Part shown: positions 2,125 to 58,446 of the stretch, one piece after another
Layout: each line of letters starts with the position of its first letter
Position numbering within the stretch: the first letter of the stretch is position 1
Source: Halobacteriota archaeon
GTDB lineage: Archaea; Halobacteriota; Syntropharchaeia; Alkanophagales; Methanospirareceae
Assembly (NCBI GenBank): GCA_049287525.1
Contig: JBAQFZ010000059.1
Coordinates: forward strand, 3,045 to 67,044
Reading direction: 5' to 3'
Length of the DNA stretch: 64,000 nucleotides
Translations under genes and position numbers: made by a program
Notes under the pieces: generated by a model
Databases searched by the model: none
What the model was told of the DNA's origin: nothing
The model's input: the letters and a program-made list of their open reading frames with translations, nothing else

Positions 2125-2182
2125 GGTAATGGATACATTCGTGATGTAAATCCACCAGAACGATAGATAAAGCGTAGACCTG

Positions 2183-3049: not shown

Positions 3050-3160
3050 CCTTACATCTCACCGTTACCCGGCTCATCTCTACTTTCGCTGAACGCCCCC
3101 TTATCGCATCCTATTCCTTTCGCCTTTTATAACACTTAATCCCCAACCCTTTATAAATAC

Positions 3161-39236: not shown

Positions 39237-42077
39237 TTACTTTATTTCGAGGAAGCCTGTATCAAACACTGTTGGTGTCCACAGCGTTGATTCTACTACT
39301 ACCCGGAATGCTTTCTTGCCCGCTGGAACTCCAGTTGGTACGTCTGCTCTGAGTGGTATCAGTACCTCACCACCTGCGGGTATCGCAACTTCTTTCGACG
39401 TCCAGTTGAACCATGCCAGATCGGCTTTCCAATCGTTTGGTATAGACTCGTTGGTCAGACTAACGAGGAATACATCGTCAAAGTTCTCGGTGTTCACGAT
39501 TTTTATACTGAGATTCACACTGCTGTTCACGGTGTTGAATCTTGGTGTAACCGCTGTACCGATTCCGCCTTTTGGTATGATTGACTCGAACACGTTCTCT
39601 AAGCAGTTGTTCTCTTCGTCACTCTCATTTACCTCGTCCTGGTTATCTGCACACACCACTATGGTATCGTTCGTGCCTGACATCGTGAACGGACCCACGG
39701 TGTTCGTGTAGCATTTACCAGCAGCAAGTGCCGGTACTGCATCCTCCATCACATCTACTCCGTCTATCGTGATGGTCGTGTTGCTCACGCCTGCATCTGC
39801 TTCTCCTTTGTTGCAGACCGTGTACGTGATGTTGTAGGTCTTATCCTCCGGACTTACCCATTCCTCGTACTTTGCCCGGATTACCAGGTCTGGCTTTCCT
39901 GGCGTGTTTATCCACGCATCGTCCCAGTCCATAAACCATTTTCCGTCATATTTGCCCTTTGCATACTGAACATTACGGTCAGCGCCACAGTCAACCACAC
40001 GCGCATCCGCTTCAATAACTATTGTATCATTTATTGTACCATTTCGTGTAAGTACAAAACGTGGGCAGTATTCGTTTACACTCCACTCACGGCTGACAAC
40101 GAGGTCTATGGTTACTTCTTCCACGTGGTATTCCGTTGCTTCGCCTGTCCTATTGTTACTTAAGACGATGAGGTCACACTCGCTGAGTATTCCATATCCA
40201 GGTTCTTCAGGGTTCTGGGTGTCTGTCCAGTTCACCAGCTCGTAGCTGTCCTTACAGCAGCAGACCTCTTCCCATTGCGTTTCCCACGGATTACTGAGGT
40301 CTATCTCCTGATGATCCCGTTCTGAATCGAAGTATAGCATGACACCATCCGGCTCCGTACTCGTTAATTTGAGCGTATAAGGCAGCAATTCCACATGGTA
40401 CCATGTCTTTCCATAGTATTCTGTTATGAACGTCCAATCCATGTTTGGATATGAAGTGCCGTCTCTCCATCCCTGACCGCGTGGGTAGAGCTCATATTTG
40501 TCCCAATAGAACCAGTGATAATCGCCATCCGTAGTAAGTTCAATGTAATATGTTTCATTTGGTATTAATTCAACTGGTGTTATGAAATGGAACTGCACCC
40601 ATACGGGCGTGTTCTTGTCTCCGAGCGCACCTAATTGCAACGTCGAACTTCCAATAGGAATCCTATTGGAATTATAGATTGCAACTGTTACGTTTCCCTG
40701 TTCGCCCCATAATGCGACACGTACTGCATCGAGTGTTGACACTGTTGGCACAAAGCTCTGGTAATCTTTTAGCGGCTCATTCTGAAGTGCATCTGAGGTA
40801 ACCGATTTTACCTGCCACTGGTCTACCACTTTCTCGCCTTCCATGTCTATCTGATCGCAGTGGCTGAGTTTACCATCGCCGTTTGTGTCTTCCCAACTAC
40901 TCAGGTGGTATTTCTTATCGGGCTCAGGACATAGCTCATTGAATCCGTTGCTGATTGGCGCATACGGGTCCCACGAGAGGTTCGCGGGATGTAATATCTT
41001 CGGCTTGAATGGGTAAGGTGGTACCAGCGTATCATCTATGGGGACATTTCCTATTTCCATTTTGATGGTCATATTGCCTGCAAATTCTAAGCTGCAGGAT
41101 GCCAAGTCCCAGAATCTTATATTCGTCAGGTTAACATCGCCGGTGTTCTGTACTTCGCATTTGAATTTATAGATGTCGCCAATCCCGGCACCGTATATCT
41201 CGTCTACCCATTCTTCGTTTACAGGGTCCCACACGGTCTTGTTTACTTCTATACCCGGCTCGTGGCAGGGTGGACATTCGAATTCGTTCTCTAAGCAGTT
41301 GTTCTCCTCTACTTCCTCGTCTACTACATTATCGTAGTCCGCGCAAACCAACACCGTTACATTCCTACCGCAAGGGCACTCGAACGTGCCAACGGTGGAC
41401 GTGTAGTTCTCGCCTGCTGCCAGTGGCGGTACAGGGTCTTCTACCACTCCGTTAGCAGCCGGGAAGCCAGCTACCGCGATGGACGTGTTGCTCGCGCCGG
41501 CATCGCCTGCTCCTTTGTTTGCTACCGTGTAGGTTACCATTATGGTATCATTCACCAATGTCTCGTACTTATCGGTGATTACTAGGTCTGGCTTCTCATT
41601 GTCTCTACAACTGAATGTGCCGTCATGCCATATTGCCGGTGGGTTGCCATAAGATTGATTCCCCAGTTTACAACTTTCATTGAGGTCCAGCAGAGTTGTG
41701 CAGTAGCCCTCGTTTTCGCAATGGATTGTAATAGTCGCGAGCTTTAAACGCTCTCCTGTTATATCGCTTACGGAAGGAGATGCTCCGATTATATGCGTTG
41801 CGCCCTTGTCGTATTTCACAAGGAACATCGAAGGGAAATCCCCAGGTGCTGCTTTTGTAATATTCGCGCAACAGGGGTCGTATTCGATCCAGATGTCGAA
41901 ACCAACTACACCCTCAGTTGCATTCAGTAGTATATCCACATCTGTTGTATTGCAATACTCAGCAGAGCTGTTCTCTGGTTCGAACCATACCGTGTTTGGT
42001 GGCAGTGCTGCTACCACGGAAGCTGACATTGCAAATAATAATGTTACTATTCCAAGCACTACTATTTTGTTATTCAT
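39237..42077 (-). CDS. giant secreted surface protein (946 aa): N-terminal cohesin-like domain, 2x CARDB repeats, C-terminal domain shared with the 35028 protein
   Basis: Signal peptide. Two CARDB-like repeats (PDLVITDKYE...VANKGAGDAGASNTSIAV...EENNCLENEF and PDLVIRAKYE...CNKGEADAGVSNTTITI...EENNCLENVF). The C-terminal RFNTVNSSVNLSIKIVNTENFDDVFLVSLTN...WKADLAWFNWTS is homologous to the C-terminus of the 35028 protein. Confidence 0.7.
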   Translation of the reverse strand: MNNKIVVLGIVTLLFAMSASVVAALPPNTVWFEPENSSAEYCNTTDVDILLNATEGVVGFDIWIEYDPCCANITKAAPGDFPSMFLVKYDKGATHIIGASPSVSDITGERLKLATITIHCENEGYCTTLLDLNESCKLGNQSYGNPPAIWHDGTFSCRDNEKPDLVITDKYETLVNDTIMVTYTVANKGAGDAGASNTSIAVAGFPAANGVVEDPVPPLAAGENYTSTVGTFECPCGRNVTVLVCADYDNVVDEEVEENNCLENEFECPPCHEPGIEVNKTVWDPVNEEWVDEIYGAGIGDIYKFKCEVQNTGDVNLTNIRFWDLASCSLEFAGNMTIKMEIGNVPIDDTLVPPYPFKPKILHPANLSWDPYAPISNGFNELCPEPDKKYHLSSWEDTNGDGKLSHCDQIDMEGEKVVDQWQVKSVTSDALQNEPLKDYQSFVPTVSTLDAVRVALWGEQGNVTVAIYNSNRIPIGSSTLQLGALGDKNTPVWVQFHFITPVELIPNETYYIELTTDGDYHWFYWDKYELYPRGQGWRDGTSYPNMDWTFITEYYGKTWYHVELLPYTLKLTSTEPDGVMLYFDSERDHQEIDLSNPWETQWEEVCCCKDSYELVNWTDTQNPEEPGYGILSECDLIVLSNNRTGEATEYHVEEVTIDLVVSREWSVNEYCPRFVLTRNGTINDTIVIEADARVVDCGADRNVQYAKGKYDGKWFMDWDDAWINTPGKPDLVIRAKYEEWVSPEDKTYNITYTVCNKGEADAGVSNTTITIDGVDVMEDAVPALAAGKCYTNTVGPFTMSGTNDTIVVCADNQDEVNESDEENNCLENVFESIIPKGGIGTAVTPRFNTVNSSVNLSIKIVNTENFDDVFLVSLTNESIPNDWKADLAWFNWTSKEVAIPAGGEVLIPLRADVPTGVPAGKKAFRVVVESTLWTPTVFDTGFLEIK

Positions 42078-42113
42078 TTTTTATCTTTTCACCTCCTAAT
42101 TTTTTATATTCGT

Positions 42114-42196
42114 GCACTTACCACGGTACCATGCTGCAAAGCAGTAGGTAAATCCCCATGCATCTCGGACCGTTTAAACCGTGGTTTCTTACTTCT
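42114..42196 (-). ncRNA. conserved ~83-nt 5' leader element (copy 1) between the promoter and the GGAGGTGA Shine-Dalgarno of gene 39237..42077
   Basis: gcacttaccacggtaccatgctgcaaagcagtaggtaaatccccatgcatctcggaccgtttaaaccgtggtttcttacttc is about 90% identical to 47403-47486. Internal complementarity: ccacgg/ccgtgg and tgcaaagca. Confidence 0.45.
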
Positions 42197-42257
42197 TCCT
42201 GTCCATATCCTCTCTTTTTTCATCTTTTCCCTCCTTCCTATTTTTATAAAAAATAAT

Positions 42258-42277
42258 AAGCGGCAGTTTGCCGCTTA
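42258..42277 (-). terminator. GC hairpin directly after the stop of the dockerin gene 42280..43296
   Basis: aagcggc agtttg gccgctt; on the minus strand it is followed by a T-rich tract (reverse complement of aaaaataataa). Confidence 0.5.
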
Positions 42278-42279
42278 TT

Positions 42280-43296
42280 CTATTTTTCCCTGCAACAACA
42301 GCAGTCCAATGCTTCTCCATACATGTAGTGACGAGCGATTTTTATCGCATCGCCCAGGAAGTCTATATTTCCACTGCAATCCACGTCTCCTGCCCACCTG
42401 CATTTTATGGGGTCGCCGTACATGTAGTGCCGTGCCACACCTATCGCATCGCCCAAAAAGTCCACGTTCCCGTTCATGTTCACGTCACCACACTTCCATG
42501 TATTGGTCAGGCAGTTGTTTGTTTCGTTGCTTTCGTCCACGGTATTATTGAAATCAGCACATACCGTTATGTTATCGCTTAGTGGTGTGTATGTCCATAC
42601 ATAGTTGAAACAACCGATATGACTATCGCCTGGTGCCAGAACTACTGGTACTGGGTCGTATTCCACTTCGAGACCGTCAACATACAACATCGTGTTATGC
42701 CCCGCAGAAGCTGTTCCATTACCCGTATTCGTTACGTTATAGCATATCGTGCAGTTATCAGTCCATGTATCAGTGACCTCCAGGTCTGGTCTTTCCCCGC
42801 ATGAGAATGTGCCGTTTTTCCATTCTACATCGAGTGGTAAGGCAGGTGGTGGTGATAGCAATGAACTACCCTCAATGAATCTCAAAGGAGTGGTGCAGAA
42901 ACTCGTACTGTTGCAGCAGTGAATCGTTAGAGTTCCAATTTGGAAAGTCCCATTTTTCGGACTCAGGGTCATGAACGCTATCCACTCTCTGCCATCAACG
43001 CTTCTATCCCACGTCGAATTTTGGGGTGGTAGCCAATTAGTAGTGTTAATTTCCCAAGTTGTTACATTTGCACACCCTGGATCATAAGAGAGGTATATCG
43101 TGCCACCTGCACAACCACGTTCGTCAGTTACATTAGCCCACACCTCTACCTCTGCAGTATTGCAATAAGGTGCATTGCTGTCCTCTGGTTTAAGCCATAC
43201 CAAGTTCTCTGCGGGCTGAGCGGAAGCTGCCGTTATCCAAACCATTGCAAATAACGCAGCTATTCCAAGGAATACTATTTCATTTTTGTGTTTCAT
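42280..43296 (-). CDS. secreted adaptor protein: N-terminal cohesin-like domain, CARDB-like domain, C-terminal type-I dockerin, ends CCCCREK
   Basis: Signal peptide. The N-domain is homologous to the N-domain of the 39237 protein (VW..PE.S.A.YCNT...YDP.CANVT). The dockerin has two Ca-binding repeats GDVNMNGNVDFLGDAIGVARHYMYG / GDVDCSGNIDFLGDAIKIARHYMYG. Confidence 0.68.
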   Translation of the reverse strand: MKHKNEIVFLGIAALFAMVWITAASAQPAENLVWLKPEDSNAPYCNTAEVEVWANVTDERGCAGGTIYLSYDPGCANVTTWEINTTNWLPPQNSTWDRSVDGREWIAFMTLSPKNGTFQIGTLTIHCCNSTSFCTTPLRFIEGSSLLSPPPALPLDVEWKNGTFSCGERPDLEVTDTWTDNCTICYNVTNTGNGTASAGHNTMLYVDGLEVEYDPVPVVLAPGDSHIGCFNYVWTYTPLSDNITVCADFNNTVDESNETNNCLTNTWKCGDVNMNGNVDFLGDAIGVARHYMYGDPIKCRWAGDVDCSGNIDFLGDAIKIARHYMYGEALDCCCCREK

Positions 43297-43539
43297 CTTT
43301 TCTTCTTTCGCCCCTAGATTTTTTACTCTTTCCTTAAAAAATTCTGATAAAGATGTTCTATTTAAAAGCTTTTCGGATAAATTTCTACTGAAACATTGCT
43401 CAAATCAAGCAAAATTAATAATTGATGTTAAGATAGCCCAAAAAATCTGACCGAAATCTCTATTTTTTCTCTCAGCCTATGCTTCTTATTCATCCCTTTT
43501 CTTTTCGCCTTCCCCCATCTTTTTATAAATAAAATGAAT

Positions 43540-43556
43540 AGCGGCATTCAGCCGCT
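43540..43556 (-). terminator. hairpin overlapping the stop codon of gene 43548..46061
   Basis: agcggc attca gccgct. The same sequence is present at 47538-47558. Confidence 0.45.
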
Positions 43557-46061
43557 TATCTTACAGCAACATTTCAGGTCATACTGACCCGGATAGCCGA
43601 CGTAGTATAGCAGGTCTATCACGTCCGACATGTCTATCCGCTTATCGCAGTTCACATCCGCTGCCCATTCATTACAAAATCGGTATTGACCGGGGTAACC
43701 CACATAATATAGCAAGTCTATTACATCCGGCATGTCCACTACTTCATTGCAGTTTACGTCACCGCATTTCCATGTCTCGGTCAGGCAGTTATTGGTCTCG
43801 TTGCTCTCTGCCATAGTATTATTGGAGTCGGCGCATACCGTTATGATGTCGCCTGGTGGCGTGTATGCCCATGTGTAGTTGAAACATCCAAGGTAACTCG
43901 CATTTGGTGCCAAATTCACGGGTACAGAATCATATACCTTTTCAACACCGTCCACAAACAGCATTGTATTATGCCCTGCTGGTGCTGGTGCCGTTCCATT
44001 TCCGACGTTCGTCACGTTATAGCAAATAGTGCAGTTTTCTTGCCACGTATCCGTGATTTTAAGGTCTGGCTTCTCTTCTGGATATTTAACGGTTAACGTT
44101 ACAGTCACTGCATAAGGGTCCTCATCCGGATCATTAGAACTTATATTTAACCAGCCATGATATTCACCTGGAGAAAGACCGGTACAATTAACGCATACGT
44201 TCACCAGTTTTGAGCCACCCGGGGAAACCGTGAATGTTCTTGGATTGGCATCAAGCCAGCCTGAACCTGATTGATAATGAATTCCGATGTCATCCACCAC
44301 CAAACTACCGTTTCCCGCGTTGGAAACCGTGAATGTCTTGCAATTTACTCCTGCAGTAAGATTTGCATAATAAACAAAATTCTCTATTGCGCATTCGCCA
44401 TAACCAACCTTGAAATAGCCATCACCGTTCCAGCCAGAGCCCCAACTGTTTTTTACAATCCAGTAGTCACCTGTTTCATCGTAACCCGCTATTACAACTG
44501 CGTGATTCACATCGTTATCATCGGTGCATCTGTAAACCCCATTTACATCGAAATACCCGCCAAATTCTGAGCCTATGCCCATAGCAACAGAGAGCGGACC
44601 TTTTTCTATCAAACTATCTTTAATTGTTTCTATATCGCTTGGCACACTCCCGGTCTCGTCTATTTTCTTTAGCCTATCGCTCCAATCGGGACATCTATAT
44701 CTATCAGAACAAGGGCAATTTCGTGCAATATACGGGAAGCAAGCCTCGTCAGTTATTCCTTCGTCCCTTATAAATTCAAGTGCTGTTGAATGCCATCCCC
44801 CATTGCAATCTCCACAAACTATGCAGCAATCCGATACTAAATACTGCTCTGAAAGGTCGAAATCCAACTCCGGATTGTCATACAAGATATTGTATTCAGG
44901 TTCTACTATGCCTACGCCAGAAAAAGCCCAGCAACTGCCACAACTGCCTTGATCCTTAACCGGGGTCATCCAATCGCCTCCGTCTTTATTCCTCCAGTCG
45001 AAGTGGTTCGGGAGGCTTATCTCCTTTTCTTTAATTTCTTTCTTATTAAAGTCCGTATCGCCAACACTCTTATTCTTATTTTTGCCAAGTTTTATCTTTC
45101 CCACCTTACACTTCTCGCTTAAATTCAGTAGCTCCGAAACAGTTTTGCGGGTGCCATCAGGCAGCACACAGGTAGTAGAGTTCGTAGCAAAGCAGTCCTT
45201 CTTTCCTTTTGATGCTATAAGCCAACCCTTTTTAGCACAATAGGAAAACTCTCTCCCACACTCACCACGATAAAAAGCCCAGGCATCGCATTCCGCTTTG
45301 TCGGGCATCACACAGATGCCTCGCTCTCCTTTTTCTCCCTTTTCTATTTTGTATTCGTAGCCCATATCCATGCAGTAAACGGCAGCGGGATTTTTGATGC
45401 CTATAACTTCTCCTTCTGCTTTAGTACTGCCACTCTGAGTGCAGTTAAATTCTGACCCTTTCAAGGTTGTTATATCTGCATTAAGGCTACATGCCTCCTC
45501 ACAGCATTCGAAGTCCAGATGTTCTGGTGTTACGTTAATATCTGGCTCGCCACTGAGCCTGACCGTATTATTGCAGCACTTTGTCGGTAGTTCATCGCAG
45601 TCGCCAGGCACCACTTTAGAGCAGAACTTGTAGTCGCCTATTTCCCATCCCCCGGGAACAGGTGCGTATAACGTAACGGTCCACGTTATATAATATCCAC
45701 CGGGAAGCCAGTCAGATGTCGAATCCGTCCATATTAGGGTACCATCCGGAGCATATTCGTAGAAGTAGATGGTATAATAGCTGCCATCACCATAGTTTGC
45801 AAATTGTGAGTAATCTATGAAGTCGTCATAAGGTTCGTAGCAGGGATACTCTGACCAAACACCGTCGCCATACCATCTGAAGTCACACCCTCTGGCAATA
45901 GGCACATCGTAGTAGTCTTCAATTGGGGACTCTTGTTTTGAGATACTAATATTCAACTCCTGAAACTCCACAAATGCTCCTGACCCGGAGAGCAATGATA
46001 GTGTTAATATCATTGTCATCACTATCGCTATTACATTTATATTTCCTCTTTTAGTGTCCAC
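43548..46061 (-). CDS. secreted multidomain protein: papain-like (C1A) cysteine peptidase, CARDB-like domain, C-terminal dockerin, ends KCCCKISG
   Basis: C1 peptidase motifs KDQGSCGSCWAFS, NHAVVIAGYD and WIVKNSWGSGWNGDGYF. The CARDB PDLKITDTWQENCTICYNVTNVGNGTAPAPAGHNTMLFV is near-identical to the one in 47555..50014. Dockerin repeats GDVNCNEVVDMPDVIDLLYYVGYPGQY x2. Confidence 0.75.
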   Translation of the reverse strand: MDTKRGNINVIAIVMTMILTLSLLSGSGAFVEFQELNISISKQESPIEDYYDVPIARGCDFRWYGDGVWSEYPCYEPYDDFIDYSQFANYGDGSYYTIYFYEYAPDGTLIWTDSTSDWLPGGYYITWTVTLYAPVPGGWEIGDYKFCSKVVPGDCDELPTKCCNNTVRLSGEPDINVTPEHLDFECCEEACSLNADITTLKGSEFNCTQSGSTKAEGEVIGIKNPAAVYCMDMGYEYKIEKGEKGERGICVMPDKAECDAWAFYRGECGREFSYCAKKGWLIASKGKKDCFATNSTTCVLPDGTRKTVSELLNLSEKCKVGKIKLGKNKNKSVGDTDFNKKEIKEKEISLPNHFDWRNKDGGDWMTPVKDQGSCGSCWAFSGVGIVEPEYNILYDNPELDFDLSEQYLVSDCCIVCGDCNGGWHSTALEFIRDEGITDEACFPYIARNCPCSDRYRCPDWSDRLKKIDETGSVPSDIETIKDSLIEKGPLSVAMGIGSEFGGYFDVNGVYRCTDDNDVNHAVVIAGYDETGDYWIVKNSWGSGWNGDGYFKVGYGECAIENFVYYANLTAGVNCKTFTVSNAGNGSLVVDDIGIHYQSGSGWLDANPRTFTVSPGGSKLVNVCVNCTGLSPGEYHGWLNISSNDPDEDPYAVTVTLTVKYPEEKPDLKITDTWQENCTICYNVTNVGNGTAPAPAGHNTMLFVDGVEKVYDSVPVNLAPNASYLGCFNYTWAYTPPGDIITVCADSNNTMAESNETNNCLTETWKCGDVNCNEVVDMPDVIDLLYYVGYPGQYRFCNEWAADVNCDKRIDMSDVIDLLYYVGYPGQYDLKCCCKISG

Positions 46062-46092
46062 TTTTCTTTTTCACCTCATATTCTTTATTCTT

Positions 46093-46521
46093 TTATTGGT
46101 CTCTCATCACCTTTTCTTTCTTCTCTCCATTCCTTTTCACTACATACAACCGCATTTCAGTTCGTACTGTCCCGGATAGCCGACGTAATACAGCAGGTCT
46201 ATTACATCCGACATGTCCACCGTTCGTCACATGATAGCAAATCGTGCAGTTAGCTGGCCAGCAGACCCATTTATCGGTGATCTCCAGGTCTGGCAGTAAC
46301 ATTGCTACTTCCGTCAACGGATGCCAATCTCCGCCTTGTTGTATACCACCAGACGAATTGTAGGGTAGCATTGTATCACCAAGCCCATCGTCATCTTCAT
46401 CCGTACCGGCATAGTCGCTCCAGTAGTTACCGCCAGACCAGAACCCGCCGACGATGTTTGTTCCCGGGATAGATTTTATTACTGCTGCCCCACTTTTGCG
46501 CATTTTCATAATTTTACCCAT
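46093..46521 (-). pseudogene. decayed duplicate of the beta-helix/dockerin gene 47555..50014 (N-terminus fused to a C-terminal segment, internal deletions, frameshifted end)
   Basis: The first 17 aa, MGKIMKMRKSGAAVIKS, are identical to the start of the 47555 gene. They are then fused to IPGTNIVGGFWSGGNYWSDYAGTDED.DGLGDTMLPYNSSGGIQQGGDWHPLTEVAMLLPDLE, which is residues ~590-650 of that gene. The DNA at 46201-46330 is near-identical to 48014-48130. Confidence 0.7.
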
Positions 46522-46642
46522 TTTTCTTAAAATTAAAAACCATGACGGGGCTTAGGCTCATATATAGTTATCGAATAGGGATATTGCATAATTAAGGCAA
46601 AATTGGACTATGGCAGCAATCTGACCCGAGTTGAGCAAGTGG
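46522..46642 (-). promoter_or_regulatory. duplicated upstream (promoter/5'UTR) segment, near-identical to 50024..50142
   Basis: ggggcttaggct.atatatagttatcgaatagggatattgcataattaaggcaaaa.tggactatggcagcaatctgacccgagttgagcaag occurs in both places. Contains TATA-like atatatagtta. Confidence 0.5.
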
Positions 46643-46751
46643 AGAGATTTCGTGGAAGACATTGGATGAAAATGTGAAAAAGAGGCTTACGAGGAATCCC
46701 GCACTCTCAAGTAGGGAAAAAAAAGGAAAAAGGTAGATGGATGTCTAACAC

Positions 46752-47339
46752 CTACTTCTCCATCCACATTTCGGCATACTTGAATTCAACCAGCGAACCG
46801 TAGTCGCTGACTCCAGGATCATAGTCCCCTATAAACCCTGTGGCAGTAGCCTCTCTGAACTTTGAATTTTCACTGTACTTGCTCATAAAGTCACCGGATT
46901 TTGACATCATTTTGAACATGCCTTTTTCCAAATCACCCCCACCGGTCCACTGAGCTTGGATGGCTACTGTCTGCACAGTCCCATCAGACACGAACAACTC
47001 TATATCCACAGGAGAGAGAGTTGCAGTGCTCAGTTGTTTATCTACGTCAAAAACATCCTCGGTAGTGAACTTATAACCCCACTTATCCTCCGACAGCCAC
47101 TCTCCCAGCTCAGAGTCGTACCAATACTTGTAAATACTCAAGTACATATCGGTCCCATCGTCGGTCTCCGTCAGCGACAGGAAGGTATAAGTATACAGCT
47201 CAGGCGATTCCTCTACCCAATCCGCATAGGCTGAAACACCCTTTTCTCGATTGATTGTCTTTGATTCCAACGCTACCACCGCTTCACACATGCTCAATGC
47301 AATAACTAACGCTAGCAGGATTGCCGCTATTTTATTCAT
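46752..47339 (-). CDS. secreted hypothetical protein (signal peptide)
   Basis: MNKIAAILLALVIALSMCEAVVA signal; 195 aa; preceded by a GGAGGTGA RBS and leader-element copy 2. Confidence 0.5.
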   Translation of the reverse strand: MNKIAAILLALVIALSMCEAVVALESKTINREKGVSAYADWVEESPELYTYTFLSLTETDDGTDMYLSIYKYWYDSELGEWLSEDKWGYKFTTEDVFDVDKQLSTATLSPVDIELFVSDGTVQTVAIQAQWTGGGDLEKGMFKMMSKSGDFMSKYSENSKFREATATGFIGDYDPGVSDYGSLVEFKYAEMWMEK

Positions 47340-47402
47340 TTTTATTTCTTTTCACCTCCTATTATTTTGGGTATTTATAAAGCACCCCTCCTCGGCGCTG
47401 AT

Positions 47403-47486
47403 GCACTTACCACGGTACCATGTTGCAAAGCAGCAGGTACATCCCCGTGCATCTCGGACATTTTAAACCGTGGTTTCTTACTTCCT
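47403..47486 (-). ncRNA. conserved ~83-nt 5' leader element (copy 2) upstream of gene 46752..47339
   Basis: gcacttaccacggtaccatgttgcaaagcagcaggtacatccccgtgcatctcggacattttaaaccgtggtttcttacttcc. See 42114-42196. Confidence 0.45.
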
Positions 47487-47554
47487 TTTCTCATCTCCAT
47501 TCTTTTTCTTCAGTCTCTACTCGCCTATTTTCATAAAAAAATAATGGGCGGCAT

Positions 47555-50014
47555 TCAGCCGCTTATTTCTATGCAACAGCATTTCAGTTCATACTGCCCA
47601 GGATAGCCGACGTAATACAGCAAGTCTATCACGTCCGACATGTCTATGCTGCTCTTGTCGCAGTTCACATCCGCTACCCACTCGTTACAAATTGTATATT
47701 GCCCCAGATAACCCACATAATATAGCAGGTCTATTACATCCGACATGTCCACTACTTCATTGCAGTTTACGTCACCGCATTTCCATGTCTCGGTCAGGCA
47801 GTTGTTGGTCTCGTTGCTCTCTTCTATCGTATTAGTGGAGTCGGCACATACCGTTATGATGTCGCCTGGTGGCGTGTATGCCCATGTGTAGTTGAAACAT
47901 CCGGTGTAGCTCGCATTTGGTGCCAAATTCACGGGTACAGAATCGTATACCTTTTCAACACCGTCTACAAACAGCGTTGTATTATGCCCTGCTGGTGCCG
48001 TACCATCTCCGACGTTCGTCACATGATAGCAAATCGTGCAGTTAGCTGGCCAGCAGACCCATATCCCGATTAGCTCCAGGTCTGGCAGTAACATTGCTAC
48101 TTCCGTCAACGGATGCCAATCTCCGCCTTGTTGTATACCACCAGACGAATTGTAGGGTAGCATTGTATCACCAAGCCCATCGCCATCTTCATCCGTACCG
48201 GCATAGTCGCTCCAGTAGTTACCGCCAGACCAGAACCCGCCGACGATGTTTGTTCCCGGAATAGGTGTGATATTCCATACGTTGGTTCCAGCATCATCAT
48301 CATCATAAGCGTTGTTCGTGTTGTCGAAGTAGTTATTGTAGATCGTATTGCCATTGGACAATATTAGAGTGATACCGATGCCGTTAGTGGTTACATTATT
48401 ACCCGTTATCGTAACGTTATCAGAATTATTCAGCCTGATACCACCCGCATTATTGGCAATCCGGTTCTCGCTGATATTGACACCATCCGGGCTGTTATCC
48501 AGATCAGATAAATTGCTCTTCGATGGCTGCATTCCTGACTCATAATCCTCACTTAGCAGCGCAAGTGCAGTAGGCGGCGCAGCATAATCAGCACTTACGA
48601 TTGGCTGCTGCAAAGCGCCACCATCTGCTACTGTGGCACCTGCAAAACCAGGCATCATACCAGAACCTGAACCAGAACCAGAGACGTAATCAAGCAGAAT
48701 GGCGTAGTCACTGTTGTTAACGATAGTATTGTTGTGAATCGAAGCATTGGTGAATGAGTAGAGTTTGATGCCGTAAGCATAACTAAAAGCCGCGTTGGCC
48801 GCGATGTAGTTATCTGAGACAATGGCACCCGAACTTTCTTTCAGATAAACACCGTATCCAAGATAGTCCCCAACTCCATTGTCTACCAGGGTATTTCCTG
48901 TAATCGTCAGATTCGCAGGAGCCGCCGCAGTATAAAAAAGCGTACTTAATATCCCATGATATATGTTATGCGATGCAGTGTTATTACAAATCGTGATGTT
49001 CTCGGTTGGCGAGTCCCCCAGAAAAATGCCGTGATACCCATTATTGTTCGCCGTGTTATTGTAAATCAAAGCGTCACTGCTCTTGTATATAACAATCCCG
49101 TGTACATCATTCTCCGATGCCGTGTTATTGATAACCGTATTGTTATAAGCCGTGTCATGGATATACACCCCATACATATTGTGCCTTGCCGTGTTGTTGG
49201 TTATTGTTGCGTTACGGGACGTCCAAGATAAAATGCCGGTCCCCGTATCTTGAGTAAGATTGAAATTATAGGAGACTTCATTACTGTCAATCAGGCAGTT
49301 ATCCGAAGAATACAGACGTATACCTTCCCAGTCATTATAATTGGCAGTATTGCGTATCAGCTTGTTATTATCTGATTCATAAAGATAGATCCCCATATGC
49401 CATTCGTTCGAGTTCGCGGTGTTGTTCGTGAGCGTATTGTTATCGCTTGAAGCCCACAAGTAGATGCCGTACTGTTTGTTCGCGCTTGCGTTGTTGTTGG
49501 CAATAGTGTTGTTAAATGAGTTGTACAAATAGATACCGCAATTGTTCGAGTTTACTGTGTTGTCCGTGATGCAGCAAGTATTAACGCCGCTAAGGTAGAT
49601 TCCCGCCTTAGCATAACTCGTTGCTCCTATCAACGTGAATCCTGAGATGTTCACCCGGTTTTGGTTCACCTCAACGACATGATCGCTTGCGTCGTTCGCT
49701 TGCACAATCACTACATCCCTGTTCTCGCCTTGCAACGTCAGCGACTTGTTCACGATTACGTTATCAAGGTAACTGCCGTTGTACACGTAAATCAAGTCGC
49801 CCACAGTCGCGTTATTTATTGCCGATTGTATCGGTGTTGAACTCGCATTGAACTGCGCCGGGGCAATCCACCACCCGCTTGTGTTCACATAAATTGCGGT
49901 TGCCGACGCAGTGCCCACGCTACCAAACGTCAATACGATAAACAGGAATAGCACAAGCACAACAGATTTTATTACTGCTGCCCCGCTTTTGCGCATTTTC
50001 ATAATTTTACCCAT
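47555..50014 (-). CDS. secreted right-handed parallel beta-helix (PbH1/NosD-like) protein, CARDB-like domain, C-terminal dockerin, ends KCCCIEISG
   Basis: Many PbH1 repeats (NTVNSNNCGIYLYNSFNNTIANNNASANKQYGIYLWASSDNNTLTNNTANSNEWHMGIYL...). NosD-like C-terminal GGNYWSDYAGTDEDGDGLGDTMLPY. CARDB and dockerin as in the 43548 protein. Confidence 0.75.
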   Translation of the reverse strand: MGKIMKMRKSGAAVIKSVVLVLFLFIVLTFGSVGTASATAIYVNTSGWWIAPAQFNASSTPIQSAINNATVGDLIYVYNGSYLDNVIVNKSLTLQGENRDVVIVQANDASDHVVEVNQNRVNISGFTLIGATSYAKAGIYLSGVNTCCITDNTVNSNNCGIYLYNSFNNTIANNNASANKQYGIYLWASSDNNTLTNNTANSNEWHMGIYLYESDNNKLIRNTANYNDWEGIRLYSSDNCLIDSNEVSYNFNLTQDTGTGILSWTSRNATITNNTARHNMYGVYIHDTAYNNTVINNTASENDVHGIVIYKSSDALIYNNTANNNGYHGIFLGDSPTENITICNNTASHNIYHGILSTLFYTAAAPANLTITGNTLVDNGVGDYLGYGVYLKESSGAIVSDNYIAANAAFSYAYGIKLYSFTNASIHNNTIVNNSDYAILLDYVSGSGSGSGMMPGFAGATVADGGALQQPIVSADYAAPPTALALLSEDYESGMQPSKSNLSDLDNSPDGVNISENRIANNAGGIRLNNSDNVTITGNNVTTNGIGITLILSNGNTIYNNYFDNTNNAYDDDDAGTNVWNITPIPGTNIVGGFWSGGNYWSDYAGTDEDGDGLGDTMLPYNSSGGIQQGGDWHPLTEVAMLLPDLELIGIWVCWPANCTICYHVTNVGDGTAPAGHNTTLFVDGVEKVYDSVPVNLAPNASYTGCFNYTWAYTPPGDIITVCADSTNTIEESNETNNCLTETWKCGDVNCNEVVDMSDVIDLLYYVGYLGQYTICNEWVADVNCDKSSIDMSDVIDLLYYVGYPGQYELKCCCIEISG

Positions 50015-50639
50015 TTTTCTTAAAATTAAAAATCTTGATGGGGCTTAGGCTTATATATAGTTATCGAATAGGGATATTGCATAATTAAGGCAAAAATGGA
50101 CTATGGCAGCAATCTGACCCGAGTTGAGCAAGAAAAGAGAGCCAATAGGAGATGTTCCGATAATAGTTCCAGGTTTACAACTTTTATGTCCAGATTGTAT
50201 TGGAGACGATTGATAGTTTATTGATACAATCCTTCTTTTCATGAAATTAAAGCGGGAGCATGTTCTATAATACTATCTAAAGGAGAAGGAAAAGGAAAAG
50301 GGTGGATATTATGGGACCGATATAGCAATACTTGCTAAAGAACCGGAAGTAAGATGGTATTCCATCAAAAAGAGGTTGAAAGAATGGCTATTGCGTCCTC
50401 CGCCAGTTTTGACAGGATATTCACACTCTCAGACCATCCGATCAAAGAGGATAATAAAAGCCAGGATGGAACTTTTAAGACCTGAACAGCAAGGCATGTA
50501 CCGCCTACACATCATCATCCACATGTTTAGATTCTGCTCTTATGCGTTATTGGCATTAACAAGTCCCTTATTTACGGGATTTTTGAATAGTAAGTTTTAT
50601 ATAGGTGTAGGGGGTATCCATCCTACATAGCAATCAAAA

Positions 50640-51416
50640 GATACAAAGCGAGGCAATCGTGTATACTTGGAAGAGTACAAATCCATAAGGCAAGGAAAAA
50701 AGGTTATTAGCAAATTCATACGCTACATCGGTCCCGAGGACAAACTATCAACGAGTGAAAAAAACGCGCAATCCCGGGAAATTGCTGTCCATCAGGGTGA
50801 TCAACAGAGTCATCGACCCTGAGAGTGTCACCCAAATGGAACGCTGGGTGCCCACTACGGATCTTCCTTATCTGGCTGGGATTTCAGCTAAGGAAATCAC
50901 AAAAGATGCGGTTCTTTCAGCACTCGATTTTGTATGCGTGGATGACCACGGCAGTGGACGTGTCGCTGATCTGAGCGCTGAACTGGGATACAACCCCAAA
51001 AGGATCCGGCGTCGCCAAGTGAACCTCGCAGTGCTGGTATCAAAGCATGATAAACATCCCATCGCGCATTTTGTCTACAATGGAAGCCGTCACAGCATAA
51101 TAACCGTGAAGAATCTCCTCGCTCGCTTGAGCATCGGGTAAGGGCGTATCTGTTCGTGTGCATGCTGGCATATTGGCTATTATCTGTGCTTCAGTGGAAG
51201 TTGAAAGAAGCTTCGGGCAAAGAGGATTCGTGGGAACGTGCAGATACGCTGTTGCAAGACCTTGCCAGAGTAGAACGGGTGGAGGTCACGTTTGGTAATG
51301 AAATAAAGACGTGGTACCTCAATGTGACGAAGGAGATAACGGATACTCTGAAGGAAATCGGCTTGATAGATTTACTTAAAGAGGAAACACACCTCTCTGA
51401 TTGCCTAGAAATGTAG
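50640..51416 (+). mobile_element. frameshifted/truncated transposase remnant (possibly IS1634/IS4-superfamily)
   Basis: Several short ORFs in different frames: ..IVYTWKSTNPIRQGKKVISKFIRYIGPEDK.. (an N-terminus of the kind seen in IS1634-like transposases), MKKTRNPGKLLSIRVINRVIDPE...YNPKRIRRRQVNLAVL, and MLAYWLLSVLQWKLKE.... It lies at the boundary of the duplicated segment. Confidence 0.3.
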
Positions 51417-51441
51417 GGGGTACATCTTCGCTAAGCAGGTA

Positions 51442-52128
51442 TTAAAACTTTCCAGACACAGGATTCCTTGGCGGAGCATCCCCTACTACAAATTTCACTT
51501 CATAATACTTCAACTGGATATTGTCATTAACAGAAACCGCATAATCAAGCCCTTCGTCAAATTCGTTCACAATTATAATTCCTCTGACGCTCTCACCGTT
51601 CTTCGCTAAATTCCGGTTAATCCAGCCCATATATCGTTGAATCTGACCTACTACTTTATCGCTTTCTTTTCCCTTTTTTGTTTCAACCACGACAAAATCT
51701 CTATTCCTATCACTGCACAGAAGGTCTATGCGACCAACAGTCTTTGTATCGTATTCCTTTTCCTTCAGTTCAAGACCCTTTTCTATCTGCGATGGGTCGC
51801 TTGCCAGATAGTTTATCAAATCTTTTTCTAAACTCACAGAATAAGGTGGAATCTCTACAGCCTCTTCTTCATCCTCAAACTCTTCTGCTAAGGCATAATA
51901 GCCTTTTTCAAGTCCTTCGGTAGATAAAATCCCTTCTTTTTTGAGTTTGTTTAGATACGAAGTAAGTCCTGATGGTGTTCTATACCCTTTTTTGACGTGT
52001 TCGGGTTGGCTGCTTCTTATAAAATCGATGATTGCGTCTCTATGTGCTGTGTGCTCTTTCTTTTCGTTTCTCAGATAGTACACAATCAAATCTCTTACAC
52101 GCATCTTCTCTAAATCAAGCATTTCCAT
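51442..52128 (-). CDS. wHTH + PD-(D/E)xK nuclease domain protein (NucS/DUF91-like C-terminus)
   Basis: C-terminal GRIDLLCSDRNRDFVVVETKKGKESDKVVGQIQRYMGWI matches the D..ExK nuclease core. Confidence 0.5.
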   Translation of the reverse strand: MEMLDLEKMRVRDLIVYYLRNEKKEHTAHRDAIIDFIRSSQPEHVKKGYRTPSGLTSYLNKLKKEGILSTEGLEKGYYALAEEFEDEEEAVEIPPYSVSLEKDLINYLASDPSQIEKGLELKEKEYDTKTVGRIDLLCSDRNRDFVVVETKKGKESDKVVGQIQRYMGWINRNLAKNGESVRGIIIVNEFDEGLDYAVSVNDNIQLKYYEVKFVVGDAPPRNPVSGKF

Positions 52129-52208: not shown

Positions 52209-52583
52209 TTATGATGCCTTTATTTTTGGCGCTTCGACAAACAAACCAAGTGTACCTCTAATTTCAAGCCCAAGTGCCTTTGCAGCATTTCTGCCTCTTT
52301 TTTCGTCAATCAATATTCTAGCACCGGAGTGCAGTGCCAGAGCAATTGCCTCCGCTTCTCCTTCATCAACCACAAGCATGAGTGCCTTCACCAATTCGGT
52401 GTTTTTCACTTCAGTAGCCTTAATCCAAGGATTATTTCGGAATAGAATAGACCCTTCAGTTTTTCTCCGTAACTCTCTCGCGACAGCCTCAGGGGCCAAA
52501 ACTTCTTCATGCACCTCTTTAAGAATAAAAAGTAACCTCGATTTAAACAACACCACTAAGGGACCGGTATCAGAAACGATCAT
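52209..52583 (-). CDS. PIN-domain protein (DUF3368-like) type II toxin candidate
   Basis: Starts MIVSDTGPLVVL; 124 aa; 4-nt overlap with the upstream UPF0175-like gene. Confidence 0.6.
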   Translation of the reverse strand: MIVSDTGPLVVLFKSRLLFILKEVHEEVLAPEAVARELRRKTEGSILFRNNPWIKATEVKNTELVKALMLVVDEGEAEAIALALHSGARILIDEKRGRNAAKALGLEIRGTLGLFVEAPKIKAS

Positions 52584-52855
52584 ATTTTGCCAAGTTCCTC
52601 TTGTAAGTCCTCCACGGTGATGTTTGTGTAGCTGATCTTCCTTTTTCCTAACTCGTAGAGAAAATCCCAGAGAGTTAACTTTGCAGTATCCGCAGCTTGT
52701 TTCAATGTCATCTTCCCCTCTCGGTAAAGCTCCACAGCTAAAGCTATTCTCGCCTCGTGATATTTCTTCTGGAGTTCGAGCATGTTATCCGCCAAAGCTA
52801 CGAGTTTATCGTGCTTTGCTACCTCCTCATGATTGGAGAAGTCATTGAAGGGCAC
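52580..52855 (-). CDS. UPF0175-family antitoxin candidate (start may be the internal Met at ~52783)
   Basis: ALAVELYREGKMTLKQAADTAKLTLWDFLYELGKRKISY matches UPF0175, which is known to pair with DUF3368 PIN proteins. Confidence 0.55.
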   Translation of the reverse strand: MPFNDFSNHEEVAKHDKLVALADNMLELQKKYHEARIALAVELYREGKMTLKQAADTAKLTLWDFLYELGKRKISYTNITVEDLQEELGKI

Positions 52856-55651: not shown

Positions 55652-56485
55652 TCAACTCAACTCCAATGGCTTTGCCTCTGACCACATCTCATCAAATTTC
55701 TCTCTCAGCTCTTTTGCTAATTTCACATCCCATATCTTCGTCATCGCAAGTATTGAAGCGGGATTCTTTGGATTTGCCACTTCTAAAACGACCTTTTCGC
55801 GGTCAATAACCTCAAAATAAGAAGGAATAGCTTTTTTCATCACTCTTATTTCAACTTTATCCATTATTTTCTCTTTTACGCCAAGCTCTTTCAAATATTC
55901 CAGCTCTGGTATTATGAACTCTTCATTCAGCAGTGCTTTTATTTTTACTCCCCTCTCGGTAGCTTTAATCACCTCATAAAGTATGAGGTTATATTCACTA
56001 TCTTTAAACACACACTCCCCGTTTTGAGATTCACAGTCTAAGATAACGCAGCAGATTTCTTTCTCCGCCTCTTCAAAATTGGATTTTATCATTTCCGCAA
56101 CTTCTTCTATCCCGACCGCGGTTGTCCAGAAGGTTCTTTCTTTAGGTCTCGCAGGAATTCTCTTTGAAATAATTTCTTCTACCTGTAATGCTGCTTCAAT
56201 CGTCTTCTGCAACTGCTTTTCCATATTCTCCCTCTTTTGCTGCAATAGCGTCTTAAACGCCAATCGGGGTTTTCTTGCTATGTATCTCTTTGGTCTGGTG
56301 TTTTGAACCTCAATCAACCCCCTGGCAGCGAGCGAATTCAATTCCTGATACACTCTGCCAAACGGGATTTTTGTCGCCTTGCATATCACGCTTGCCTCGG
56401 CAATACCCAATTCCACTACTTTCAGGTACGCCTCAATCTCATAATTGCTCAACCCGAGTTCCTTGAGCAGTCTCTTCACTTCCAT
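55652..56485 (-). CDS. TrmB-family transcriptional regulator
   Basis: N-terminal LKELGLSNYEIEAYLKVVELGIAEASVICKATKIPFGRVYQELNSLAARGLI is a TrmB HTH; 277 aa. Confidence 0.72.
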   Translation of the reverse strand: MEVKRLLKELGLSNYEIEAYLKVVELGIAEASVICKATKIPFGRVYQELNSLAARGLIEVQNTRPKRYIARKPRLAFKTLLQQKRENMEKQLQKTIEAALQVEEIISKRIPARPKERTFWTTAVGIEEVAEMIKSNFEEAEKEICCVILDCESQNGECVFKDSEYNLILYEVIKATERGVKIKALLNEEFIIPELEYLKELGVKEKIMDKVEIRVMKKAIPSYFEVIDREKVVLEVANPKNPASILAMTKIWDVKLAKELREKFDEMWSEAKPLELS

Positions 56486-56564: not shown

Positions 56565-57524
56565 ATGTATTATTTTGGGATTAAAAAGATGAGAAAAAGG
56601 GGAAAAATGGGAAGGAGTGTTTTAGCAGGTGGCATAGTTATCTGCATCGTAGCGGCTTTTATCAGCTCTTTGGCAATTCTAGTTCCGGCATTGGCTGCAT
56701 TGCAAGCAGAAGACACTGTGAAGGTCACCGTGAATGCACCTGAGTATGTAAACGGGACTTTTAATGCGAGCATAGATGTGGATAATATTACGGATTTCAA
56801 CTCAGGGCAATTCGACCTTTCCTTTAATTCAAGCGTGGTGAACGTAACTGGCGTAGGGGATGGTGAAATAGCGGGAGAAACGGTGCCGATATTCATGTGG
56901 GATTTCGTTAACGCAGACAAGGTGCGGGTGCTTGTCAGTATGCCAATGGGAGTAGGTTTAAATGGCTCAGGGCACTTAGCAGAAGTGGAGTTCGGGGTAA
57001 GAGGAGAAGAGGGAGATAGAAGCAAGCTGGACATTTCTGGTGGGCTGCTCGTGGATACCGAAGCGAAGGAGATAGAAGTGGAATGGTATCACGATGAAGT
57101 AACAGTTAAAATTAAAGCAGTTGTGTTTGATACGGGTGAAGGAACGTATCCAAGCATCTTTGGAACGCATGAAGGAACAATTACACCTGCTAAAGATATT
57201 TCCGTGCATAAGATGTACACATACCCATGCACAGGGACGGGTGGGCATTCTGAATATGTAAGGATTTGGAATGCCACATTGGATATGGATATAAGTGCTA
57301 CCTGGAAGGGCTATACCGGAAATTACCACAACATCGTTTTCCACGAACCATTCACACTATCCGCAGGAGAAACTTACAACTACACCATTAGAACAGGTTC
57401 TTATCCGCTGGTCCATCACACTGAAGAATTAGAATTAGACGGGGGAATGATGAGGTGCACAAAATTCACAGACGCAAATGGTCGCACTTTTAACGATTGG
57501 ATTCTGGCGATGAAACTCTGGTAA
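56565..57524 (+). CDS. secreted cohesin-domain protein with conserved C-terminal domain (paralogue of 22084..22986)
   Basis: Signal peptide. Cohesin VKVTVNAPEYVNGTFNASIDVDNITDFNSGQFDLSFNSSVVNVTGV...LAEVEFGV. The C-domain is shared with the 22084 protein. Confidence 0.68.
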   Translation: MYYFGIKKMRKRGKMGRSVLAGGIVICIVAAFISSLAILVPALAALQAEDTVKVTVNAPEYVNGTFNASIDVDNITDFNSGQFDLSFNSSVVNVTGVGDGEIAGETVPIFMWDFVNADKVRVLVSMPMGVGLNGSGHLAEVEFGVRGEEGDRSKLDISGGLLVDTEAKEIEVEWYHDEVTVKIKAVVFDTGEGTYPSIFGTHEGTITPAKDISVHKMYTYPCTGTGGHSEYVRIWNATLDMDISATWKGYTGNYHNIVFHEPFTLSAGETYNYTIRTGSYPLVHHTEELELDGGMMRCTKFTDANGRTFNDWILAMKLW

Positions 57525-57540: not shown

Positions 57541-58446
57541 ATGAAGGAAGAAAGAAAGGATAGATGCGATAAGGAGGTAGGAAGAAGAGAAAGAAGTTGC
57601 AAAGGAACCTTGAAGTTGCCAATAGTGGCTAAAGCAGTTTTACTTGTCTTAATGGCAATAGCGGTTACGTCTCTCACGCTTGCTCCCGCAGCAGCACAGG
57701 AAGCAGATGTTACAGTTTCGGTTAATGCACCGGAATATGTAGAGGGAAATACTTTTGTCGCTACCATAGCAGTGGATAGTGTAACCGACTTCAATTCAGC
57801 ACAGTTCGACCTATCTTTTAATCCCGATGTTGTGAAGGTAAGCAATGTAAAGGAGGGGGAAATAAACGGAGAGAATATTCCGATTGTCATGTGGGTTTTA
57901 AACAATGATAAGGATACTGTGCGGGTGCTTGCAAGTCTGACAATTGGAGAAAGTGAGAGCGGCTCCGGGTACTTAGCAGAAGTGGAGTTCGAGGTAAAAG
58001 GAGAAGAGGGAGAGAAAAGCGAGTTAAACCTCTCTAACGGGGAACTTGTTAATGAGACCGGGAAAATAATGCTATCGAATTGGCATGGTGCTGAGGTAAC
58101 AATAGGTGTTACGCCTACACCAACGCCAGAAGAGGAGGAAGATGAAGAAGAAACTACGCCAACGCCTACACAGGAACCCGAAGTAACTCCTACACTTACG
58201 CCGGAAGCAAATATAACAGAACCAATAGTCACAACGCCTACGCCAACATTAGCACATGGTGTAACGCCATTGCAAGAAGCAACACCAGCGGTAAAAACAA
58301 CGCCAAAGCCAACAGCACCGCCAACCACTGAGGAAAAGCTAACGCCCACACCAACGCCAAAGCCTGCCGCTCCAGGATTCGAAGCTATGTTTGCAATAGC
58401 AGTGATGCTGGCAGTTGCGTATGTTTTCAAAAAAGTGGGAAGGTGA
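57541..58446 (+). CDS. scaffoldin-like surface protein: one cohesin domain, Thr/Pro/Glu-rich linker, PGF-CTERM archaeosortase anchor
   Basis: Cohesin ADVTVSVNAPEYVEGNTFVATIAVDSVTDFNSAQFDLSFNPDVVKV...YLAEVEFEVKG. Linker TPTPTPEEEEDEEETTPTPTQEPEVTPT.... C-terminus PAAPGFEAMFAIAVMLAVAYVFKKVGR (PGF, then TM, then basic tail). Confidence 0.7.
   Translation: MKEERKDRCDKEVGRRERSCKGTLKLPIVAKAVLLVLMAIAVTSLTLAPAAAQEADVTVSVNAPEYVEGNTFVATIAVDSVTDFNSAQFDLSFNPDVVKVSNVKEGEINGENIPIVMWVLNNDKDTVRVLASLTIGESESGSGYLAEVEFEVKGEEGEKSELNLSNGELVNETGKIMLSNWHGAEVTIGVTPTPTPEEEEDEEETTPTPTQEPEVTPTLTPEANITEPIVTTPTPTLAHGVTPLQEATPAVKTTPKPTAPPTTEEKLTPTPTPKPAAPGFEAMFAIAVMLAVAYVFKKVGR

Follow-up and report, generated by a model that had tools for sequence, protein, structure and literature searches.

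On the minus strand of a 64,000-nucleotide (nt) stretch of DNA from a Halobacteriota archaeon (Syntropharchaeia, Alkanophagales, Methanospirareceae; assembly GCA_049287525.1, contig JBAQFZ010000059.1, positions 3,045 to 67,044), the whole of which we call the window, we found that a short element at 46144-46647, named A', is very probably a dead paralog, or pseudogene remnant, of the adjacent surface-protein gene A. Gene A (47555-50014, minus strand) is an intact open reading frame (ORF) of 819 amino acids (aa), whose predicted product combines a signal peptide, a NosD/right-handed beta-helix region, a CARDB domain and two Cys-rich dockerin-like repeats (Pfam: NosD 3e-64, Beta_helix 5e-49, CARDB 6e-14). 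The Prokaryotic Genome Annotation Pipeline (PGAP) starts this gene at 50002, giving 815 aa, and names it “NosD domain-containing protein” (MFZ2070904.1). A' consists of collinear pieces of gene A and of its upstream DNA, as found by BLASTN and by repeat search, and it has lost the entire beta-helix, the hydrophobic core of the signal peptide and the reading frame of its dockerin-like end. A previous sequence-only reading had described 46138-46642 as a collapsed copy of 47566-50142, that is, as a decayed duplicate of a beta-helix/dockerin gene including its upstream region; this description, with CARDB added to the gene, is supported by the collinear homology and by the junctions, with the limits now corrected to 46144-46647 against 47571-50140.

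Collinear pieces, junctions and residual frame of A'

Across the 504 nt that it keeps, A' is 95.6% identical to the gene A segment 47571-50140, with 22 mismatches. BLASTN of 46000-46800 against the window gave three collinear matches with E values from 1e-22 to 7e-120, pairing 46471-46647 with 49964-50140 (94.9%, 177 nt, E 5e-77), 46212-46472 with 48004-48264 (95.8%, 261 nt, E 7e-120) and 46144-46217 with 47571-47644 (89%, 74 nt, E 1e-22), and a repeat search of the window recovered the same A'/gene A families. This similarity is far above chance and is not limited to low-complexity sequence. As in a segmental duplication, the homology runs into the non-coding upstream DNA and has a defined boundary in both copies, ending sharply at 46647 in A' and at 50140 in gene A, with unrelated flanks beyond it in both. 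Also considered was an inverted 20-nt match that pairs 46666-46685 with N-terminal coding sequence; it was rejected, being an A-rich 20-mer with three mismatches and at chance level.

The outermost piece of A', called U' (46522-46647, 126 nt, minus strand), is a copy of the upstream region U of gene A (50015-50140, minus strand), which was duplicated with the gene and matches it at 94-95%; the upstream match reported earlier was therefore real, although its long-copy coordinates were 2-9 nt off. U holds a B recognition element (BRE)/TATA-like motif, CGATAACTATATATAA, about 45 nt before the ATG, and from it we infer a putative promoter role for U; the corresponding element of U', at about 46560-46568, is CGATAACTATATATGA, one substitution away. 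Altogether U' and U differ at 8 of the 126 positions, three of them at the outer edge and four in the TATA/5' untranslated region, where the changes include TATATATAA to TATATATGA. A sigma-70 promoter scan is inapplicable to archaea, and only its hairpin/terminator output was used in this work.

Next comes N' (46471-46521, minus strand), which carries the first 17 codons (MGKIMKMRKSGAAVIKS), exactly as had been claimed, with one synonymous nucleotide difference from gene A, and which represents the n-region of the signal peptide only. It is joined in frame to M' (46221-46470, minus strand), a 250-nt copy of gene A 48013-48262 that covers the end of NosD, the linker and the start of CARDB. Six of the 8 mismatches of M' are grouped at 46271-46281. 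The earlier reading had rightly noticed this near-identical stretch, but had put it at about 130 nt and with coordinates up to about 20 nt off; its coordinates elsewhere were for the most part right to within 10 nt. The last piece, D' (46144-46220, minus strand), is a single hybrid dockerin-like repeat that lies out of frame relative to M', as resolved by a three-way alignment: 46192-46220 is identical to dockerin repeat 1 of gene A (47724-47752) at 29/29 nt, and 46144-46191 corresponds to repeat 2 (47571-47618) at 43/48 nt, so that the collapsed dockerin end described earlier is indeed a hybrid of the two repeats. Read in the dockerin frame, D' still translates as DMSDVIDLLYYVGYPGQYELKC, but the frame entered from M' is a different one.

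Three segments of gene A (all minus strand) are missing between these pieces. The first and largest, 48263-49963, is 1701 nt or 567 codons long, which refines the earlier span of 48258-49962 for a beta-helix deletion that was otherwise correctly recognized; it removes the signal-peptide h-region and the entire beta-helix, joins codon 17 to codon 585 in frame, and has a microhomology of 2 nt (AG) at its junction (46470/46471). The second, 47753-48012, comprises 260 nt and takes away the greater part of CARDB, as far as dockerin repeat 1; it shifts the frame, and its junction (A' 46221|46220) is blunt, with no microhomology. The third, 47619-47723, measures 105 nt or 35 codons, which is the spacing of the dockerin repeats, and its crossover falls in a 4-nt zone common to both repeats (A' 46192-46195); this is an unequal recombination between dockerin repeats 1 and 2 that gave the single hybrid. 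Besides these, the stop codon of gene A and its overlapping terminator-like hairpin (GCGGCTGAATGCCGC plus a T-run, 47548-47562, minus strand) are absent from A', whose homology to gene A stops at 46144. All of the A' junction sequences are made of A-derived DNA only, with overlaps of 0-4 nt.

What is left for translation is a 142-aa ORF (46093-46521, minus strand), annotated by PGAP as the 138-aa hypothetical protein WAV32_04780. The maximum hydropathy of its N-terminus (11-aa window) is 1.0 over the first 45 residues, against 3.83 in gene A, where the core reads VVLVLFLFIVL; the NosD Pfam match has shrunk to a sub-threshold stub of 20 residues; and the last ~40 residues are an out-of-frame read-through of the dockerin-like repeat and its 3' flank. 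Because the hydrophobic core of the signal is lost and the C-terminal ~40 residues are frameshifted, this ORF cannot be the truncated secreted peptide proposed earlier, and A', judged from these features, is most likely without protein function. In the manner of pseudogenes in general, it joins nucleotide homology to an intact gene with a disrupted frame and the loss of essential parts.

We suggest that a second copy of gene A, together with its 126 nt of upstream DNA, would once have stood between the genes called B and C here, the common 3' modules and spacers of the co-oriented genes around it having been possible substrates for homologous recombination. At least three or four separate deletions then eroded this copy, namely the 1701-nt in-frame deletion, the 260-nt blunt frameshifting deletion, the 105-nt recombination between dockerin repeats and the loss of the stop codon and terminator hairpin. 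The sequence itself shows the collinear homology, the exact junctions, their consequences for the frame and the loss of the signal core, whereas the full length of the second copy at the outset, the order in which the deletions happened and the way in which the duplication first arose are our inferences. That the short form was derived by deletion follows from the full beta-helix architecture of the gene A homologs in other archaea, and from the frameshift and the missing signal core of A'; the opposite direction, with an ancestral short form and a gene A that gained its beta-helix by insertion, is ruled out by the same frameshift, by the headless signal peptide and by the family-wide full architecture.

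Several points weigh against a simple dead duplicate. PGAP annotates the A' ORF as a protein; at 142 aa this ORF is intact and still has a promoter-like region in front of it, so that its expression would be possible. Secondly, the divergence is uneven, with 0/29 differences in the repeat-1 part, 2/~240 in M' outside its mismatch cluster, 5/48 in the repeat-2 part and 8/126 upstream, a pattern for which a single duplication and subsequent neutral drift account only in part. Thirdly, it is uncertain where the duplicated unit ends on its 3' side, since past 46144 the homology is marginal and is given no weight here: the stretch of 82 nt from 46143 to the start of gene C resembles the spacer between A and B at a score that 7/300 shuffles reach. 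Finally, the junctions are those of a single 72,260-nt contig of a metagenome-assembled genome (MAG), and a full-length ancestral state at this position is presumed. Exact-protein look-ups of A, B and A' matched no indexed contig; a scan of GTDB representatives gave nothing with gene B and only distant homologs with gene A, the best at 55% over its full length in an ANME-1 (anaerobic methanotrophic archaea) Methanophagales genome and without synteny; and scans of the Joint Genome Institute metagenome DNA returned 0 matches, both for a 24-mer taken out of the duplicated upstream DNA and for a 28-mer of the C/g338 spacer (g338 being the 338-aa gene of the cluster). The only close relative found was a 3.75-kb contig of SRA run SRR4089363 (Logan), 94.3% identical to the part of the cluster that holds g338 and its companion g946 (39700-43460), with the A' locus outside it, so that the collections searched contained no close strain usable for that locus.

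Age of the copy and alternative origins

The overall divergence of 4.4% between A and A' is similar to the 5.7% that separates this genome from its nearest sampled relative over 3.7 kb, and therefore “recent”, the word used for these events in the sequence-only reading, has to be understood as roughly species-level age, while the internal deletions and the recombination that it also described are upheld, the genes around A' forming a mosaic of paralogous modules that recombine. Six of the 22 differences fall within 11 nt (A' 46271-46281 against A 48060-48070) and alter four residues at the start of CARDB: there A' has the family consensus PDLxITDxW, also present in gene C, g338 and g946, and gene A has the derived PDLELIGIW. 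Since A' holds the consensus where A is derived, both copies come from a common ancestor and A' is not a recent artefactual copy, and gene A too has changed since the split, as the same residues show. Gene A may have acquired these six changes in 11 nt (48060-48070) through a multi-nucleotide mutation or, alternatively, by micro-conversion with a donor sequence that is not seen here. A diversity-generating retroelement was rejected as the source of the differences, given that the A/A' mismatches are of all types and not adenine-specific, and that no reverse transcriptase was seen among the neighbouring ORFs scanned. In the repeat-2 part, four of the five differences are synonymous in the dockerin frame, so that this part diverged while under selection.

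Some gene conversion among paralogs probably acted alongside simple duplication, as suggested by the patchy mismatches and by modules that are common across the cluster. Taken further, A' could be an older paralog of the tandem family instead of a recent segmental duplication: gene conversion would have homogenized its 5' half with A, and deletions would have worn it down afterwards or at the same time. This stronger version we regard as unlikely, though deserving of attention. It would account for identical runs of 109 and 76 nt standing beside the 6-in-11-nt cluster and the 10%-diverged repeat-2 end, the latter being near the 12% background divergence of the 3' modules of A and C, and for the sharing of modules at 74-88% identity throughout the cluster. 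However, repeat 2 provides a sample of just 48 nt, the six-nucleotide cluster is a derived change in gene A and not an old difference, and the upstream non-coding DNA stays ~94% identical up to a sharp boundary, as expected of a duplication endpoint.

A second alternative concerns not the origin of A' but its present role. With the coding part dead, its promoter-like region might now serve gene C after deletion of the terminator, or provide a regulatory transcript or 5' end, an exaptation that we hold to be doubtful. Gene C starts 31 nt after the stop of the A' ORF and 78 nt after the dockerin-frame stop; the minus strand from 46647 to 46061 has no terminator-like hairpin, in contrast to the ends of A, C and g338, where one is present; and gene B has T-rich and hairpin terminator-like elements just upstream of U'. 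Because the terminator has been lost in A', transcription from U' could run into gene C, and the downstream C1-peptidase gene may thus depend on the A' promoter. Nevertheless, the TATA-like element of A' carries a substitution, an A/T-rich stretch 20-40 nt before the start of gene C could itself be a promoter, and the conservation of U' is equally explained by a young copy.

The sequence-only reading had also held that the duplicated segment was bounded by insertion sequence (IS) remnants and that its changes were probably IS-mediated, so that transposition, or recombination between IS copies, would have made both the second copy and its deletions. The first point is not supported, and the second we consider very improbable. 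There is one remnant only in the window, a decayed IS1634-family/DDE transposase upstream of gene A (50496-51425, plus strand) that tblastn resolved into coding fragments at 50646-50762, 50770-51132 and 51126-51413; the remnant was thus correctly spotted, but it is not, as described, up against the limit of the intact copy at 50140: 355 nt separate that limit from the tentative left end of the remnant, and 506 nt from its first coding fragment. The intervening 50141-50495 has no detectable homology to gene B, to the other cluster genes or to the rest of the window, and neither this transposase nor its ends recur elsewhere in the 64-kb window. Nothing IS-like lies beside A'. The boundary at 46647/46648, the flanks of A' and the deletion junctions show neither IS sequence nor an inverted repeat or a target duplication; the junctions are ones of 0-2 nt microhomology or of repeat-to-repeat recombination, so that IS mediation remains speculation. 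In its favour stand the remnant itself and a related metagenomic lineage (73-83% DNA identity), in which a 149-aa, 5'-truncated A-like fragment (NosD end, CARDB, dockerin start) directly follows a 138-aa fragment of a different transposase, DDE_Tnp_ISAZ013 (contig 2059-3116), an arrangement that is conserved in four samples or more and has intact NosD/beta-helix/CARDB genes after it. Because the truncated fragment adjoins that transposase fragment, IS activity does damage the A-like gene family elsewhere.

The IS remnant is itself decayed, through at least three internal deletions. Its fragments correspond to transposase residues 7-45, to 95-256 with gaps and to the last 96 residues, so that residues ~46-94, about 40 within 95-256 and about 215 of the catalytic core are missing, and there are frameshifts too. 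The ORFs scored against NCBIfam NF033559 (50755-51141 and 51156-51416) reach 19.8 and 25.9 bits, below the 100-bit cut-off, and their matches keep the order of the profile, at positions 153-202 and 416-481; such low scores are as expected of fragments. Metagenomic transposases match the remnant at 54-88% identity, and the longer ones carry PF01609, the DDE core being deleted in the window. Tentative terminal inverted repeats matching at 14/15 lie at 50496-50509 and 51412-51425, with a chance expectation of ~0.002 by our own estimate and not as a tool result, and no target-site duplication or direct repeat is visible flanking these tentative ends.

Two further proposals are in our opinion highly improbable. 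The first blames the short-read metagenome assembly, in which repeats or strain variants would have produced A' as a chimeric or collapsed path; it draws on the MAG origin of the contig and on exact A/A' runs of up to 109 nt, able to tangle assembly graphs, but mis-joins need shared k-mers and the two large junctions share only 0-2 nt, and the third 4 nt, which disfavours an artefact, as do the 22 private differences of A' (including the ancestral ITDK motif absent from A) and its setting between unique sequence on both sides. The second is that the cluster would be a cassette-exchange system, in which conserved handles let homologous recombination swap passenger domains (beta-helix, C1 peptidase and others) between expression sites and A' would be a handles-only skeleton whose promoter drives the downstream peptidase gene; such handles may be the 5' promoter with the signal-peptide n-region, and the 3' CARDB-dockerin-hairpin-spacer module (74-88% in four adjacent genes).

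The gene cluster and its surroundings

Every gene from 39237 to 50014 lies on the minus strand and has CARDB, some with a dockerin-like end and some without. Gene C (43548-46061, minus strand) combines DUF333, a C1 (papain-type) peptidase, CARDB and a dockerin-like end, and its 3' end is 87.8% identical to that of gene A over 532 nt. A and C have two tandem repeats each (DVNC..DMSDVIDLLYYVGY), spaced 35 codons apart as in two-segment type I dockerins, with Dockerin_1 (PF00404) scores of 12.3 bits for gene A and 19.3 bits for gene C, both below the gathering cut-off of 22.9 bits. The spacer between A and B is 82% identical to that between g338 and g946, and the first 30 nt around the start of gene B match those around the start of g946. 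From these comparisons, the cluster is a mosaic of common 3' modules, spacers and 5' ends with differing passengers (beta-helix, C1 peptidase, unknown). The terminator-like hairpin of gene A is kept after gene C (43540-43556) and after g338 (42255-42279), a GC-rich hairpin (GCGGC-loop-GCCGC) with a T-run thus standing at or after the stops of three adjacent dockerin-type genes on the minus strand, within a common 3' module and spacer that are 74-88% identical between genes with different passenger domains.

Between the two copies lies gene B (46752-47339, minus strand), which encodes a predicted secreted protein of 195 aa without a Pfam family. It belongs to a family of ~195-aa secreted proteins without Pfam domain present in ANME-2 and Methanosarcinales MAGs; its homologs there are found in housekeeping contexts, often divergent from a 344-aa gene, and in a 78%-identical relative the context is unrelated as well, so that its location inside the dockerin cluster is not conserved.

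The window also encodes three cohesin-domain proteins, one of them with a PGF-CTERM anchor, as well as AglB and ordinary archaeal housekeeping genes, and the cohesin-domain proteins are candidate partners of the dockerin-like proteins of the cluster. Two neighbouring cohesin-domain proteins, a TroA-like periplasmic-binding-protein gene and a TrmB-type regulator occupy 56565-57524, 57541-58446, 58443-59810 and 55652-56485; the second of the neighbouring cohesin proteins bears the PGF-CTERM archaeal surface anchor, and the third cohesin protein is at 22084-22986. Next to the IS remnant, a NucS_C/PD-(D/E)XK nuclease-like protein (51442-52128) ends 16 nt from its tentative right end, and beside it, at 52209-52855, a UPF0175 antitoxin-like gene overlaps a 124-aa ORF by 4 nt, probably as a toxin-antitoxin pair. 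Further on, 60103-63764 holds a squalene-hopene-cyclase-like protein (Pfam SQHop_cyclase_C, 7.5e-82), after which come two radical-SAM/SPASM proteins; in an archaeal genome this combination is unusual.

Significance and comparison with known systems

The importance of A' is modest: it is a base-resolved record of how a surface-protein gene was duplicated and then dismantled, by illegitimate deletions and one recombination between dockerin repeats, in an uncultured archaeon with a cohesin/dockerin repertoire, and it shows a 3' CARDB-dockerin-terminator module that is common to, and shuffled among, neighbouring genes. For the annotation, it means that WAV32_04780 is better treated as a pseudogene fragment than as a 138-aa “hypothetical protein”.

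A deletional bias has been described in prokaryotes (Kuo & Ochman 2009, PMC2817411; Kuo & Ochman 2010, PMC2916853). Like the duplication pseudogenes of prokaryotes, A' is truncated, frameshifted and shortened by deletions and not by insertions, and the adjoining IS remnant is similarly decayed; A' differs in that its largest deletion is in frame and the upstream region is kept, so that an ORF with a start codon survives and is annotated as a protein. The cohesin/dockerin surface proteins of ANME and related archaea are known to differ strongly between close relatives (Chadwick et al. 2022, PMC9012536). Gene A and the genes around it resemble them in their C-terminal dockerin-like repeats and in the three cohesin-domain proteins of the same window, but the modules found here are Cys-rich and below the Dockerin_1 threshold, and A' is a dead copy, not a working member.

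With IS-flanked, composite-transposon-like duplications, the locus shares a transposase remnant within ~0.5 kb of one copy; it departs from them in that a second IS, target-site duplications and IS ends at the limits of the duplication or of the deletions are all absent. In silent donor cassettes of the pilS and vls type, the variable region is present but not the promoter or the 5' end. A' is likewise a partial, non-expressed-looking copy beside an expressed surface gene in a rapidly changing cluster, but in contrast to such cassettes it keeps the promoter-like region and the conserved ends without the passenger, and it is a single copy. A' is a known kind of thing, a duplication/recombination pseudogene in a cluster of paralogous surface-protein genes that has been eroded by deletions, and it reveals no new mechanism.

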